Program-made: the position numbers and the translations under genes
NCBI GenBank assembly: GCA_964433345.1
Contig: CAYSQJ010000005.1
Location: forward strand, 155,585 to 219,584
DNA from: an uncultured Bordetella sp.
GTDB lineage: Bacteria > Pseudomonadota > Gammaproteobacteria > Burkholderiales > SG8-41
Direction of reading: 5' to 3'
DNA length: 64,000 nt
Part shown: positions 60,580 to 64,000 of the stretch, one piece after another
Position numbering within the stretch: the stretch's first letter is position 1
How the letters are laid out: every line of letters starts with the position of its first letter
The notes under the pieces: model-generated
What the model saw: only the letters and a program-made list of their open reading frames with translations
Databases searched by the model: none
Told to the model about the DNA's origin: nothing

Positions 60580-60906
60580 TTATGCTCGGCTGGCACTGCG
60601 AACGACCCTTGGTACGACGTACTTGATACCGACAATGGTTACGGCAAATAGCATCACAAGGGCAAGAAGCGGTGGAAGCAATCCACCATCGGAACTTAAG
60701 CGAAACGCCCTCACAACCGAAAGAGAAACTGCCGCGAACGCGAAGAAGAGAAGACGTATAGTAATTATCCATAGGTGACGGTGCGCGCTTCTACCATTGG
60801 GCGGCGCAGGTAAGAGCGTTAAGTTAATCACGGAATAAGTTACCGCGAGAGCTCCTACCGCAGATCCGAACCCGATTCCAGCTAGCAGGCTGAGTAGTGC
60901 GTCCAT
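60580..60906 (-). CDS. Small polytopic membrane protein, candidate immunity protein for toxin CT1
   Basis: MDALLSLLAGIGFGSAVGALAV...; TAATG stop/start overlap with the toxin gene; three hydrophobic segments. Confidence 0.5.
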   Translation of the reverse strand: MDALLSLLAGIGFGSAVGALAVTYSVINLTLLPAPPNGRSAHRHLWIITIRLLFFAFAAVSLSVVRAFRLSSDGGLLPPLLALVMLFAVTIVGIKYVVPRVVRSASRA

Positions 60907-63071
60907 TACTGGCACCCACAAGACATGTCGGGGTTGTACCCGCCAAGCGTGGTTGGCACGAACAGATTTGCTCCCATTTGGCTCGCGGCACTTGCCCCAA
61001 CTGAGACAGCAGCACCAGCATTGAGTGCATTCTGCATATTCGCGCTGATCGTCGCTGGGCTGGTAAAACCGCTAAATGTACGGTTTTGTCCAATATACTG
61101 GAGCGTGCGCCCAAGTCCTGCCGCGCTGCCCAAACCTCCGGAGATTGCACCGATTCCAGCTTGCACACCTGCTTGACCCCAACACACATTGCCAGTTGTG
61201 GCGTACTGATTCACTACATTACTCGTGCCACCAATCAGGCCTCCGGCCAATCCTGTTCCAAAGACACCCCATGAGGTAGGAACAAACGTTGCAGCGACGC
61301 CAGCACCAGCGCCAACAACCGTCCCCCACGCGATAGCAGAGGCATTCTGCCAAGTCCATCCGCCGCTCGCATTTGCTGCTTGGATCGCACCGGCAGCACC
61401 CCCGACGACACCGCCGATAGTTTGAATGATCCAGAGGCCCTCTGGGTCAACACGACTCAGCGGATTGCTTCCAACATAGGCGTATGTATTGATTCCCCCT
61501 GCGAGCCCAATCGGATCAGATTGCACATACCGTCCGGTGAGCGGATCATAATCCCTGAAGTAGTTGTAGTGTGTGCCGAGTTCAGTGTCGAAGTACTGCC
61601 CCGGCAGTCTGAGGTTGCAGGTAAAGTTCCCCGCCCCCGAGGGGTTCTCGTTCGGCGCATTGTTCCCATAGGGATCATCGTTCGCCCAACTCCACACCGC
61701 CTGTCCCGTGTCACTGGTAATGAGCCGCGGCGTGTTCAGGTGATCGGTGTGCACGAAGTACATCTTCGGCACGGTGGTGAGCGCGATCAGCTGGATCGCA
61801 TCCGCAATGACGAAGCCGTTGGCCTGGTCGGTGAGGGTGATGGTGCTGCTGCCGTTGAGGTTAAACGTCCCCAGCAGGTTGAAGGCACCGCCATTGGTCT
61901 GCTGGTTGACGGGTACTTGAGTGGTCCCCTGGGCATGGTTCACCGTGTAAGTCGCATTGCTCGCCCGATTCGGGTTTGCCGTCCACTTCGCATACACCTC
62001 GTATTGCCCCGCTGCGACGTTCGGCGTCCAGGTCGCGGTGTTGAACTCCGGCGCCGAGGCCTCGATCAGCCGGATCGCATCCGCAATCACGAAGCCATTG
62101 GCCTGATCCGTCAGACTCACCTTGTGGCCCGATCCGGGCGCCATGCTGTAAGTGCCGAGCAAGACCCACTGCCCGTTGTTCTGCACCTGATCCACCGTCA
62201 CCGGGGTGTCACCCCCGGCATGGGTCACCGTGTACTGGGCATTGCTCGCCCGGTTCGGATGCGCCGTCCAGCGGGCATAGACCTTGTAGCTGCCCGCACT
62301 GGGGATCGTCGGCGTCCAGGTGGCCGTATTGGGGGCCGCATTCTCCGGGGTGACCTTGATCGCATCGGCAATGACGTAGCCGTCACCCTGGTCGACCAGC
62401 ACCACCGAGTGGCCGCTGCCGGCGTTGAGACTGAAGGTGCCCAGCAACTGCCAAGTCCCGCCATTGGCCTCCTGGTTCACCGTCACCGCTGTCGCGCCCC
62501 CGGCATGGTTCACCGTATAGGTGGCCTGGGTGCTGCGGTTGGGGTGGGCGGTCCAGCGGGCATAGACCTTGTAGCTGCCGGTGGTGGGGATGGTGGGGGT
62601 CCAGGTGAAGCTGTTGGCCCCGGCCCCGGCCGGGTGATGCTGGTAGTTGCTGCCGTAGTAGCCGCCGACACTGGTGGAAGTGGCCCAGGTGCCGGAGGCC
62701 GTGCCCGCGGTGTTGTCCACCACGATGGCAGAGGGTTCCTCGCCATTGGCGGCGTGGACCTGGTAGTTGCTGCCCAGATACCCGCCCACCGAGGTCGAAG
62801 TGGGCCAGGTGCCAGTGACACTGAAGCCCGAGTCGGTGTTGTCCACCACGATGGCGCCGGGCGGGCTGCCGTTGGCGGGGTGGGCGAGGTAGTTCGAGCC
62901 CTGGTAACCGGGCACATTGGTGGAAGCCGACCAGCTGCCCAGCGTGCTGAAGCCGGCATCCGTGTTGTCGATCACCACCGGGGTGGCGGCTTGGGTGGCC
63001 ACGGCAGAGCCCAGCAGCAGGGCGGCGAGCAGGTGGCGGGCGGTGGTCATGATGTGTTTGTTGTTATTCAT
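60906..63071 (-). CDS. Secreted lectin-repeat / RHS-core / C-terminal toxin (CT1, glycine-zipper-rich) protein, upstream copy
   Basis: AGGGG SD; signal peptide [31 protein letters not shown]; same modules and core as the 58121 gene up to SRVDPEGL, then a 175-aa Gly/Ala-rich C-terminus. Confidence 0.8.
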   Translation of the reverse strand: [721 protein letters not shown]

Positions 63072-63084
63072 GTCCGCGGCCCCT

Positions 63085-64000
63085 TTACTGGATCACCGCC
63101 ACGGGGGCATCCCCGAGGTAGATGTATTCCCGCTGGGGGGTGCCGGAGGCACTCGTCTCCGAGATCAGACGCCCCTGGGCGTCATAGTGGTAAATCGTGT
63201 CGCCCTGGGTGTTGGTCTTGCGGATCCGCTGACCGACACTGTTCACCTGGTAGGTCGTGCTGCCCCCCACGCCAGTGGCCTGCACCAGGCGCCCGCGGCT
63301 GTCGTAAGCGAAGCTGCGTGCCGTGTCGGCCGTGGTGCTGCCATTGGCGTCGTAGCTGTAGCTGCGGTTCGTCGTGCCGCTGATGCTGGCGAGCCGGTTG
63401 CTGCTGCCGCTGTAGGCATAGGTGTCGGTGTTCGCCCCCACGGTCCGGGTCAACCGGTTGCCCACCGCATCGAAGGTGTAGCCCTGGCTCGTGCTGGGGC
63501 CGGTGAAGCCCGTCAGCCGGTCCAGCGTGTCATAGGCATAGGTGTTGGTATTGACCGGGGTCACCGTGTCGGTCAGGCTGGTGATGCGGCTGGCGGGGTC
63601 GTAGCCCACGGCAATCGACTGGGTGGCCAGCGTGTAGCTCGCGATGCGCCCGTCCTGATCAAACCCGCGGCTGTAGGTCTGCCCGTTGCCGAAGGTGTGG
63701 CCCGAACTGGGCCCGAAGGGCCGGTAGGCGACGCTGGAGACGACCGTCTGGGTCTCCGAGTCCTTGGTGGTGGCCACCGCCTGGATGCGGCCCAGCGCAT
63801 CAAGGGTGTAGGTGACCTGCCGCCCGGAGGGGTAGGTCATCCCGGTCATGCGGCCTGCGCTGTCATAGGCGTAGGCGGTGACATAGGGCACGCCGTTGAT
63901 GGTGCGGGTCTCCGACAGCAGTCGGCCGTGCACGTCATAGGCATAGTCGGTGAGGCTGTTGGGCTCGGTGATCTGCGTGAGCCGTCCCTTGCCGTTCGTG
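63085..64000 (-). CDS. YD-repeat (Rhs shell) protein, C-terminal part; N-terminus lies beyond the window
   Basis: Repeated YxYDxxGR(L/M) units (YAYDSAGRMTGMTY, YTLDALGRIQAV, YAYDTLDRLTGF, YHYDAQGRLISE). The frame stays open to 64000. It ends ...REYIYLGDAPVAVIQ with TAA at 63085-63087. Confidence 0.85.
   Translation of the reverse strand, partial: TNGKGRLTQITEPNSLTDYAYDVHGRLLSETRTINGVPYVTAYAYDSAGRMTGMTYPSGRQVTYTLDALGRIQAVATTKDSETQTVVSSVAYRPFGPSSGHTFGNGQTYSRGFDQDGRIASYTLATQSIAVGYDPASRITSLTDTVTPVNTNTYAYDTLDRLTGFTGPSTSQGYTFDAVGNRLTRTVGANTDTYAYSGSSNRLASISGTTNRSYSYDANGSTTADTARSFAYDSRGRLVQATGVGGSTTYQVNSVGQRIRKTNTQGDTIYHYDAQGRLISETSASGTPQREYIYLGDAPVAVIQ

Follow-up and report, generated by a model that had tools for sequence, protein, structure and literature searches.

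An Rhs toxin locus whose cage and lectin-repeat toxin cartridges are separate genes with predicted export signals

In the 64,000-nt window (the whole stretch of uncultured Bordetella sp. DNA that was analysed), we found an Rhs toxin locus in which the YD-repeat shell and the repeat-associated core with its toxin lie on separate genes, the latter with a predicted signal peptide and a CBM35-like array of its own. The split layout is genuine. It is conserved and occurs widely in public sequences, where it is not rare. We give slightly better than an even chance to the view that the locus represents the distal portion of an operon that encodes a Sec-exported Rhs polymorphic toxin from a split gene, and that the parts of this toxin assemble in trans.

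The shell and the core lie on separate genes

The junction consists of the following features.

63085..64000, minus strand: 3' end of the YD-repeat shell gene (last 304 codons and stop; RHS_repeat 116 bits, TIGR01643 82 bits), which runs on past the window
63072..63084, minus strand: 13-nt intergenic spacer AGGGGCCGCGGAC, with a Shine-Dalgarno-like AGGGG 8 nt before the ATG
60906..63071, minus strand: cartridge 1, a 721-aa ORF with signal peptide, Golvesin_C array, Rhs core and toxin CT1 (ORF and profile matches)

The shell ORF terminates in ...REYIYLGDAPVAVIQ (...YLGDAPVAVIQ) at TAA 63087-63085, and the ATG at 63071 opens the 721-aa ORF, closing at 60906, in another frame (offset 16 nt). The first-pass annotation had described this junction correctly, both in its coordinates and in its sequence. 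Solved Rhs shells match the upstream ORF, in which the YD-repeat shell (PF05593 / TIGR01643) is present, and its end is 86-87% identical to the shell ends of L001/L077 and L019. In the relative L077 the full shell ORF has 1298 aa, with DUF6531 and, by sequence features, its own signal peptide. Since shell and core sit on separate ORFs here (stop, 13-nt gap, new start and frame change) and not on one polypeptide, we filed the locus as a variant and not as a canonical Rhs member.

The genetic break falls at a permissive site, the flanks of which are 5-40 residues apart in one chain of solved Rhs structures. In the single chain of 8h8a the shell match extends to about residue 1037 and the core match begins at 1049; the corresponding positions in single-chain Tse15 are 1241 and 1283.

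The split is conserved among relatives

The succession of stop, short gap and new start with signal peptide was repeated in seven other genome loci at 44-87% identity; the loci with a short gap between shell stop and module are L001, L002, L003, L004, L006, L019 and L021. Among the 120 closest shell homologues, 116 have a C-terminus at PVxV(x)Q/K/R or at most 3 residues beyond, and none carries Golvesin_C. Purifying selection acts on both genes, shell and module (dN/dS 0.09-0.18 for shell end, Golvesin array and core, at dS 0.6-1.9). These observations bear out the earlier claim of separate gene products, and the comparison with homologues shows that the split is not an artefact. The proposed comparison of syntenic loci had a double outcome, in that the split is conserved and fused forms also exist among relatives.

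Of 71 split-type modules, 63 begin with a hydrophobic segment, against none of the 26 linkers of the fused type, in agreement with the export signal that had been proposed for the toxin-bearing product, as far as sequence features can tell. A word-indexed search returned 2188 matches at E <= 1e-5, and a query combining the last Golvesin repeat with the core gave 4141 representative clusters at E <= 1e-30, a count that may take in strong Golvesin-only matches. As to the first-pass remark that the architecture appeared undescribed, we found no paper that studies or describes the split layout; with 2188 matches the layout itself is not rare.

Cartridge 1 combines a predicted signal peptide, a CBM35-like array and an Rhs core

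Cartridge 1 and the small genes behind it are made up as follows.

62988..63071, minus strand: signal peptide, aa 1-28, followed by ATP (by sequence features)
61785..62984, minus strand: Golvesin_C / CBM35-like array, aa 30-429 (Pfam 351 bits, AF2, Foldseek)
61434..61763, minus strand: Rhs repeat-associated core, aa 437-546, SDPIGL ... VDPEGL (TIGR03696, NF041261)
60909..61433, minus strand: toxin CT1, aa 547-721, Gly/Ala-rich and hydrophobic, with 3 Cys
60580..60906, minus strand: candidate immunity gene 1a, coding for 108 aa with about three hydrophobic helices and starting at an ATG that overlaps the stop of CT1 (TAATG)
60263..60577, minus strand: second small hydrophobic ORF, 104 aa (GC of region ~0.49)

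The N-terminus of cartridge 1 combines basic residues with a hydrophobic stretch and an A-x-A site, and AF2 placed a low-confidence helix at aa 7-20 ahead of the first domain. The array scored 351 bits against Golvesin_C (PF25275), for which the cut-off is 31.6 bits. The "about 400 aa of repeat modules" of the first-pass annotation are indeed there; they are composed of three N-terminal sub-segments of ~38 aa (aa 30-67, 71-109 and 113-~150) followed by three C-terminal sub-segments of ~90 aa (aa ~151-243, 248-335 and 342-429), all belonging to one domain type and giving three CBM35-like domains. AF2 modelled the array confidently on its own (pLDDT > 90), and Foldseek matched it to CBM35 modules (2w1w_B, TM 0.73; 2w47_A, 0.71; 2vzp_B, 0.69) and also to the xanthan lyase 6f2p. 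InterPro places golvesin and xanthan lyase under CBM6-CBM35-CBM36_like_2 (PMC9166713). Both the profile match and the beta-jelly-roll fold assign the array to the CBM35-like module class. The modelled folds are in line with the putative glycan-binding domains noted earlier, and the array may act as a lectin.

The Rhs core was matched by TIGR03696 at aa 466-546 with 78.8 bits (cut-off 32.5). Only the last 109 positions (1153-1261) of the E. coli full-length RHS model NF041261 matched, at aa 433-546, and PF03527 alone fell slightly under threshold (25.4 vs 27.9). The profile searches suggested at first pass (RHS_repeat, TIGR03696 and Golvesin_C) were thus all positive, with the core at aa 437-546 as had been read. 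Its catalytic Asp pair, D519 (DPIGL) and D542 (DPEGL), corresponds in the Tse15 alignment to the two Asp that are mutated in 8uxt, the cleavage-dead structure, and is invariant across 57 homologues.

At CT1 the GC content falls from ~0.67 to ~0.55, and the AF2 pLDDT of this part is about 35. Position and hydrophobicity suggest an immunity role for gene 1a, which had no Pfam match, and the 104-aa ORF possibly encodes a second immunity or an accessory protein.

Relatives show every fusion and fission form

Among the relatives we observed every fusion/fission combination at two fixed points. All-in-one proteins of ~1850-2060 aa, each with an N-terminal signal peptide, occur in L008, L010, L012 and L015; the C-terminal half of the shell is fused to the module in proteins of ~1100 aa (P0026, P0093 and others); and a whole shell accompanies a separate module in the window locus and in L077. 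A three-gene form has separate genes for N-half, C-half and module. In L078 and L079, the two loci in which this was checked, the reading frames of N-half and C-half overlap at ATGA. In this form the N-half aligns to residues 184-853 and the C-half to residues 857-1298 of the L077 shell. Each fragment checked in L078, L079, L081, L082 and L083 has a hydrophobic, signal-peptide-like N-terminus. Where fused relatives have a short linker, ~100 nt with stop, ribosome-binding site, start and signal peptide stand instead. Because all these combinations exist and each fragment has its own signal peptide, we favour assembly of the pieces in the periplasm, and the pattern would speak for trans-assembly over a shell-independent route.

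The structure models are of single chains, and the contact between shell and module is a putative one. A model of a fused relative (C-half plus core) superposed best on TcC 4igl_B (TM 0.48, rmsd ~8 A, ~616 columns). The pLDDT of the core was 63-84 beside the shell (P0093), as opposed to 85 falling to 47 for the core alone.

We also considered whether the cartridge could be a self-sufficient secreted bacteriocin, in which the array would bind the receptor and the core would be a self-cleaving release element, while the neighbouring shell protein would have a separate role, for instance as adhesin or scaffold. The cartridges are full-length ORFs, each with a signal peptide, and 2-6 of them form an array at a locus that has one shell at most; because they outnumber shells, and because no shell lies within 10-20 kb in the available DNA of some arrays (L007, L016), they may act alone. 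The predicted independent folding of the Golvesin array is compatible with this, as is the variation of the display array among relatives (Golvesin, Big_7, Big_3_5 and F5/8 type C), which resembles that of bacteriocin receptor-binding parts. However, the core accounts for no more than the last ~110 residues of a cocoon and is poorly modelled alone, the shell stops at the exact residue where fused relatives enter the array and is kept under purifying selection, the shell gene ends just before the first complete cartridge in all seven loci with upstream DNA, and the full range of fusion and fission forms exists. We therefore regard a cartridge that works without its shell as unlikely, though not negligibly so.

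A second cartridge lies within a long direct repeat

Downstream of the small membrane-protein genes the locus continues with a second cartridge, and the two cartridges share a direct repeat.

58121..60211, minus strand: cartridge 2, 696 aa from ATG 60211, with the same h-region, Golvesin array and core and a different toxin, CT2 (ORF and profiles)
57777..58124, minus strand: candidate immunity gene 2, coding for 113-115 aa with a hydrophobic anchor at the N-terminus, and overlapping the CT2 stop by 4 nt
61462..63010, minus strand: direct repeat copy A, pairing with copy B
58611..60159, minus strand: direct repeat copy B, pairing with copy A

Cartridge 2 (58121-60211), the small membrane ORFs after each toxin and the sub-segment make-up of the array had been missed at first pass. 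Cartridge 2 is identical to the database protein P0001. Its n-region is without Lys/Arg, no obvious Shine-Dalgarno sequence was seen upstream of its start, and a search for a promoter-like site at the locus found none. The repeat copies span 1549 bp at 98.5% identity, with a central ~1290 bp identical and the differences clustered at both ends, and the two cartridges part ways exactly after DP(E/L)GL. CT1, CT2 and the putative immunity proteins gave no family or structure match; the position of gene 2 suggests an immunity role. An integrase gene adjoins the locus.

C-terminal displacement is an established model for rhs loci, and the split could be a by-product of cassette turnover. Incoming cassettes of signal peptide, lectin array, core and toxin would displace older ones by homologous recombination, and downstream cartridges would mostly be orphans that stay silent until recombination or gene conversion activates them. 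This agrees with the displacement model and with the near-identical repeat, the end-clustered differences of which are as expected after gene conversion, with the GC drop in toxin and immunity parts, the integrase gene, the classical core-only orphans present in L002, L003, L007 and L023, and the weak translation signals of cartridge 2. Turnover would account for cartridge 2 but not for the first junction, which lies at one residue across lineages (dS to 1.9) and is in every case accompanied by a signal peptide; moreover, the downstream cartridges of relatives keep intact ORFs and signal peptides. As an explanation of the split we consider it rather improbable, whereas as a process it may be true alongside trans-assembly. 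We rejected as extremely improbable that an error in sequencing or assembly, or a recent nonsense or frameshift mutation, had broken a single rhs ORF. All that could be adduced for it is how often frameshifts occur in long, GC-rich repeat genes; against it stand a ~100-nt replacement in place of a point change, the same junction in seven independent assemblies and 116 of 120 database homologues, and dN/dS well below 1 on both sides of the break.

Proposed assembly and export

In the trans-assembly explanation that we prefer, the operon would run from a cage gene ending after the last strand through cartridge 1 and the small membrane-protein genes to cartridge 2 with its own immunity gene, and the small membrane-protein genes after the toxins are probably immunity genes. 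Each polypeptide would cross the inner membrane by Sec and lose its signal peptide. In the periplasm the cartridge core, contributing the cage-closing strands and an aspartyl autoprotease that would cut at DPxGL, would dock on the open end of the cage and so rebuild the cocoon as in single-chain relatives, with the toxin inside and the lectin array outside. The complex would then leave the cell, probably via a type II secretion-like machine, the genes for which lie next to the locus in close relatives, after which the array would bind surface glycans of the target cell and the toxin would act on its envelope. Such a site of action would be in line with the toxin families of relatives (among them Tlde1, colicin M and phospholipases A2), with the Cys-rich toxin parts (at least 4 Cys in 58 of 97) and with the downstream membrane proteins. 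Against this explanation, loading a toxin in trans into a pre-made cage is topologically demanding, cartridge 2 has neither a basic n-region nor a clear ribosome-binding site, and no promoter-like site was seen.

The export route is suggested by synteny. GspG, GspF, GspE and PilM/N/O-like genes and a secretin are divergently adjacent to the locus in five independent relatives (L077, L019, L003, L011 and L079/L080); this cluster was absent beside eight others examined (L005, L008, L010, L012, L015, L078, L081 and L082) and from the part of the locus covered by the window. A Sec/Tat signal peptide, a feature of type II secretion substrates, is predicted on each subunit from sequence features. 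A type II secretion-like machine is the probable route, and because the cluster ATPase carries an MshEN domain, the cluster could equally be a type IV pilus-like system.

Comparison with known systems

Type VI secretion Rhs effectors (RhsA of Pseudomonas protegens, 7q97; Tse5, 8cp6; Tse15, 8uxt; RhsP, 8h8a; Photorhabdus Rhs, 7pq5) share with this locus the YD-repeat cocoon, the C-terminal core with two catalytic Asp and the DPxGL site, and a variable toxin followed by an immunity gene, which is putative here. After autoproteolysis these effectors consist of several non-covalently held chains. They are nevertheless each encoded by one gene, lack a signal peptide and have PAAR- or VgrG-linked N-termini, whereas here each fragment has a predicted Sec signal, the chain break is genetic and precedes the core, and a ~400-aa CBM35-like array stands between shell and core. 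The L077 shell and the fully fused forms start with a signal peptide instead of a PAAR/VgrG N-terminus, and no type VI secretion genes were seen among the genes listed or profile-scanned around the locus and in the listed neighbourhoods of relatives.

Orphan rhs-CT/immunity cassettes of Enterobacteriaceae likewise form tandem downstream copies with the core of the main gene and other toxins and immunity genes, the latter putative in this locus, and long identical repeats allow displacement, as they would here. Classical orphans are 5'-truncated, without start codon or export signal, in contrast to the full ORF of ~700 aa with signal peptide and lectin array in this locus. LlpA-type lectin-like bacteriocins are secreted antibacterial proteins targeted by sugar-binding domains; they offer a functional analogy only, with another fold (MMBL) and no Rhs core, cage or separate toxin domain.

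The BC cocoon of Tc toxins (TcB + TcC; 4igl, 4o9x) is built in trans from two separately encoded proteins with the toxin inside, and the N-half/C-half gene boundary of the three-gene relatives is analogous to it. A cocoon put together from two gene products would fit the fusion/fission pattern and the TcC-like extent of C-half plus core. In Tc toxins the core, protease and toxin stay on the chain of the C-terminal half-cage, whereas the break here lies between a complete cage and the core, and the Sec signals on each part and the lectin array are extra features. The shells of relatives show only DUF6531, RHS_repeat and TEN_YD-shell, with no SpvB, beta-propeller, TcA partner or TcA-like neighbour.

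WapA of Bacillus subtilis and other Sec-dependent RHS toxins have in common with this locus export by signal peptide and carbohydrate- or wall-binding domains together with RHS repeats and a C-terminal toxin; in the parts of the survey by Zhang et al. 2012 (PMC3482391) drawn on here, the lectin domains lie at N-termini, among the repeats or near the toxin, and the proteins are single polypeptides, with no shell/core split or signal-peptide cartridges described. Bcn-A of Xanthomonas perforans, likened here by its published description (PMC7259588) and not by sequence, is an Rhs-family bacteriocin for which no lectin array was reported. It needs ORFA and small downstream ORFs, of which ORF4 has a signal peptide and hydrophobic helices, and its immunity protein is a predicted inner-membrane protein (PMC7259588). 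Culture supernatant carries the activity, which a mutant of the type II secretion gene xpsD no longer shows (PMC7259588).

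Separate genes for shell and core

The junction between shell and toxin-bearing module in this Rhs locus comprises the following features:

TAA at 63087-63085, minus strand: end of the YD-repeat shell ORF, which enters from beyond the window edge and ends ...REYIYLGDAPVAVIQ
13 nt, minus strand: spacer AGGGGCCGCGGAC between the shell TAA and the next ATG
ATG at 63071, end at 60906, minus strand: cartridge 1 (721 aa; signal peptide, lectin array, Rhs core and toxin CT1), in a different frame from the shell ORF

The first-pass annotation had claimed a shell ORF followed by a separate ORF in a new frame, with an Rhs core inside the latter, and both claims were borne out. 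In profile searches the shell fragment scored 116 bits with RHS_repeat and 82 bits with TIGR01643, and the 721-aa ORF scored 351 bits with Golvesin_C (cut-off 31.6). The same ORF matched the Rhs repeat-associated core TIGR03696 at aa 466-546 (78.8 bits, cut-off 32.5), and NF041261, a model of full-length E. coli RHS, was matched over its last 109 positions only, at aa 433-546. This core, the region that closes the cage and carries the aspartyl autoprotease, has both catalytic Asp residues, D519 (DPIGL) and D542 (DPEGL), which correspond to the positions mutated in the cleavage-dead structure of Tse15 and show no variation among 57 homologues. Where Rhs structures have been solved, the flanks of the break lie in the same chain with 5-40 residues between them (residues ~1037 and ~1049 in 8h8a, 1241 and 1283 in Tse15).

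Conservation of the split was assessed in 76 genome loci, which were collected with the family profile and examined for junction type. The same junction was found in seven of these loci (L001/L077, a close relative, and L002, L003, L004, L006, L019 and L021), while 13 other loci continued in frame via a short non-hydrophobic linker. Split loci shared a shell end of the form ...(Y/W)L(x)D(x)P(x)(x)V(x)Q, then a stop, a short gap, and a Met with a signal peptide that immediately precedes the first (I/V)(I/V)xDN of the array. Of the database homologues closest to the window's shell end, 120 were examined, and 116 of them ended at that position or at most three residues later (final residue Q in 81, K in 27 and R in 8; two or three extra residues in four of the 116), and none of the 120 carried Golvesin_C. 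An earlier signal-peptide heuristic passed 55 of 60 modules, but since it also passed 23 of 60 internal control segments, it was replaced by a comparison of split-type with fused-type proteins; a strongly hydrophobic 12-residue window ahead of the array was present in 63/71 of the former versus 0/26 of the latter. Comparison with relatives at dS 0.6-1.9 gave dN/dS values of 0.09-0.15 in the core, 0.12-0.14 in the shell end and 0.12-0.18 in the array. On these comparative sequence data we regard the split as real and old, which excludes an artefact or fresh pseudogene. Programmed read-through or frameshifting over the junction was also considered and rejected: the frame relation varies (same in L004, different elsewhere), and a product of this kind would place the signal peptide mid-chain, which counts against such a fusion.

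The putative lectin array

Searched with a profile of a single complete Golvesin unit, the 721-aa protein gave five matches. At aa 30-67 and 71-109 the match was limited to the first ~37 profile positions, at aa 113-243 the whole profile was matched, and at aa 248-335 and 342-429 the match was limited to positions ~40-128. The array (61785-62984, minus strand, aa 30-429) is thus not three tandem domains: three N-terminal sub-segments are followed by three C-terminal ones (a-a-a-b-b-b). Every sub-segment was modelled at pLDDT >90, and their order suggests that three complete domains may be formed in a nested fashion with the chain ends near each other, a geometry that would suit insertion into a hairpin. 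Together with the Golvesin_C score, matches of the array model to CBM35 modules (2w1w_B, TM 0.73; 2w47_A, 0.71; 2vzp_B, 0.69) identify the repeats ahead of the core as CBM35-like, putatively glycan-binding domains. The model also matched xanthan lyase 6f2p, and golvesin and xanthan lyase have the InterPro domain CBM6-CBM35-CBM36_like_2 in common (PMC9166713).

Fusion and fission in relatives

The family is large, with 2188 proteins at E <= 1e-5 among the candidates scored in the module search. With a 221-aa query covering the last Golvesin repeat and the core, 4141 representative clusters were obtained at E <= 1e-30, a number in which strong matches to Golvesin alone may be counted. Among the top 150 of these 4141, 102 matched continuously through the Golvesin-to-core junction (78 of at most 800 aa, 18 of more than 1300 aa). 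Annotation is generic only ('RHS repeat-associated core domain-containing protein', 'YD repeat-containing protein').

The N-terminus of the window's shell and its neighbours were read from relatives at ~85% identity. In L077, one such relative, the shell ORF is 1298 aa long and carries a signal peptide of its own as well as DUF6531. In five loci (L078, L079, L081, L082, L083) the shell is divided between an N-half gene (732-877 aa) and a C-half gene (~465-490 aa), whose products align to residues 184-853 and 857-1298 of the L077 shell, respectively. The N-half (DUF6531 and YD repeats) ends ...GA(L/Q)Q in L078 and L079; the C-half has its own signal peptide, ends PVAVL(Q/K), and starts in overlap with the N-half stop (ATGA in L078 and L079). 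A third gene in such loci encodes signal peptide, display array, core and toxin. This fission point within the shell, the second to be conserved, gives rise to three-gene Rhs systems in L078, L079, L080, L081, L082 and L083.

Fused forms were found as well. In database proteins P0026, P0045, P0090, P0093 and P0097 (~1100 aa) the C-half is fused to the module, and in L011 a separate N-half ORF lies upstream of such a fusion. All-in-one proteins of ~1850-2060 aa with an N-terminal signal peptide occur in L008, L010, L012 and L015. In a Nitrosomonadaceae locus (L005, 9956-17296) a 2446-aa stop-to-stop Rhs ORF carries signal peptide and Golvesin array N-terminal to the shell, which indicates that the signal peptide-lectin unit is a movable module. 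Display arrays in relatives were of the Golvesin_C, Big_7/Big_3_5 and F5/8 type C types. In L084 (9034-10993) an insertion sequence with an rve-type transposase lies directly 5' of a 330-aa shell remnant without a following cartridge, an example of system decay.

A second cartridge and the surroundings of the locus

Downstream of cartridge 1 the window contains the following features:

60580-60906, minus strand: small hydrophobic ORF after CT1, about three helices, TAATG overlap with the toxin stop
60263-60577, minus strand: second small hydrophobic ORF after CT1
58121-60211, minus strand: cartridge 2, complete ORF of 696 aa from ATG (signal peptide, Golvesin array, core, toxin CT2), toxin different from that of cartridge 1
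57777-58124, minus strand: small membrane-anchored ORF after CT2, putative immunity gene, start overlapping the toxin stop
57261-57710, plus strand: small HD-domain gene between housekeeping genes and the Rhs locus
55970-57223, plus strand: tyrosine integrase (profile matches to Arm-DNA-bind_3, Phage_int_M and Phage_integrase)

The two cartridges share 95% protein identity between the h-region of the signal peptide and DP(E/L)GL and are unrelated beyond. At the DNA level they form a direct repeat of 1549 bp (61462-63010 and 58611-60159; 98.5% identical), with no mismatch in the central ~1290 bp and all 23 differences at the two ends. Judged by this pattern, the repeat bears the signature of recent gene conversion and would be a substrate for deletion or displacement. 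The signal peptide of cartridge 2 has an n-region without Lys or Arg, and we saw no Shine-Dalgarno-like sequence ahead of its ATG. A promoter and terminator scan returned no promoter-like and one terminator-like site, below chance, and was uninformative on separate transcription of cartridge 2. The small ORFs downstream of the toxins gave no Pfam match. GC content is ~0.67 over the shell and lectin array and drops to ~0.49-0.55 over the toxins and putative immunity genes. The integrase gene sits between the Rhs locus and housekeeping genes including Tex, RdgC and TctC, and the region of the integrase and HD genes may be a genomic-island boundary; the 64-kb window contains no tRNA gene as a mark of an integration site. 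Two long plus-strand ORFs, 61380-63383 (667 aa) and 58253-60229 (658 aa), were rejected as genes, being Arg/Gly/Pro-rich shadows opposite the GC-rich repeat; in L077 the gene caller had accepted one such antisense shadow ORF (263 aa, 12508-13299).

Predicted structures, secretion and toxins

The model of the fused relative P0093 had a mean pLDDT of 78; its shell and array were confident, and the core lay at 63-84. It matched Rhs shells and superposed best on TcC subunits (4igl_B, TM 0.48, rmsd ~8 A), which fits the idea that C-half plus core would be the equivalent of TcC in the two-protein Tc cocoon. When the window's module was modelled alone, the array was confident, the core fell from 85 to 47 and the toxin was unstructured, a faint hint that the core may need the shell.

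In five independent relatives (L077, L019, L003, L011 and L079/L080), a divergent cluster of GspG, GspF, GspE, PilM/N/O-like proteins and a secretin adjoins the shell gene; the corresponding region falls outside the window. The cluster spans are:

L077: 1-5441
L079: 1-7015
L003: 1287-6002
L011: 455-5495
L019: 3-197

The GspE of the L079 cluster has MshEN, and the cluster may encode a pilus-like system. Eight other loci have no such cluster beside them (L005, L008, L010, L012, L015, L078, L081 and L082). From gene order, a link with type II secretion-like clusters is thus suggestive, not universal.

CT1 and CT2 had no significant match among solved structures and none in Pfam/NCBIfam. Among the toxin families recognisable in relatives, Tlde1, colicin M and phospholipases A2 are directed at the envelope; Ntox10 and Ntox16 were found as well. 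The putative immunity proteins in the window are membrane proteins, and CT1 is hydrophobic and rich in Gly and Ala, which suggests that it might be a membrane-active toxin. Cysteines were counted in toxin parts from P0001-P0370, the database homologues of the module, including 60909-61433 and 58124-58575 of the window. At least four were present in 58/97 toxin parts, and the number past DPxGL was odd (1, 3, 5, 7, 9, 11 or 15) in 93/97 family members, as counted without a control set. Arrays and mature C-half shells have essentially no Cys, and N-terminal shell parts usually have an even number. The window's clade has one additional Cys in the core (...NFTCNLR...), making the total even, and a core-toxin disulfide is conceivable there.

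Proposed trans-assembly and its alternatives

Recurrent fusion and fission at the same two points is a classical sign that separately encoded products function together in a single assembly, and the export signal that every fragment checked has of its own would place this assembly outside the cytoplasm. The best explanation, which we hold with moderate confidence, is that a split Rhs toxin is exported by Sec and assembled in trans in the periplasm, where it would display its lectin array and accept exchangeable cartridges. The first-pass observation was confirmed and its interpretation supported. A more far-reaching version is tentative: a single Sec-exported cage might be loaded in trans in the periplasm with any co-encoded cartridge, and a dedicated type II secretion-like machine would export a diffusible, glycan-targeted Rhs bacteriocin. 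If so, gene fission would be an adaptation that yields several toxins from one cage without recombination.

That the module, equipped with its own signal peptide and array, acts as a shell-independent lectin toxin seems unlikely to us, considering its repeated fusion to shell parts. Even less probable is that the arrangement serves mainly as a recombinational reservoir, a role that the long direct repeat would allow and that is compatible with trans-assembly. That the break reflects a sequencing or assembly error or a fresh pseudogene is hardly credible given its recurrence.

Rhs and Tc cocoons are a major means of packaging toxic enzymes. To our knowledge, little is understood about how toxins enter their cages, or about how a cage that has neither a T6SS nor a TcA partner exits the cell and finds its targets. 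With cage and plug-protease-toxin as separate Sec-exported proteins, trans-assembly and toxin loading would become directly testable; the coexistence of fused and split versions in nature would do the same for modularity, the variable arrays of lectin or Ig-like type that are displayed from between shell and core for targeting, and the sometimes-adjacent secretion cluster for secretion. A natural, widespread system of this kind would offer a template for engineered cages with exchangeable cargo.

Comparison with known systems

The window's system appears to work like Rhs/Tc cocoon toxins, and the sequences of both shell and core agree with this. Unlike canonical Rhs proteins it is not a single polypeptide, and neither a PAAR/T6SS context nor a TcA/SpvB context was seen among the neighbouring genes surveyed here and in relatives. 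Tc toxins have cocoons built of two proteins. Our literature search found no description of a genetic break between complete cage and core, of signal peptides on every fragment, of arrays of full-length cartridges bearing signal peptides, or of an Rhs locus adjoining a T2SS-like cluster. Zhang et al. 2012 describe lectin domains within Sec-dependent RHS toxins and standalone toxin cassettes (PMC3482391). The only experimental parallel that we found is Bcn-A of Xanthomonas perforans, an Rhs-family bacteriocin. A search for its ORF4 with the two helix sequences printed in PMC7259588 gave no candidates. Bcn-A activity requires ORFA and small downstream ORFs, one of which has a signal peptide and hydrophobic helices; its immunity protein is predicted to reside in the inner membrane, and the activity is present in the supernatant and depends on xpsD (PMC7259588).
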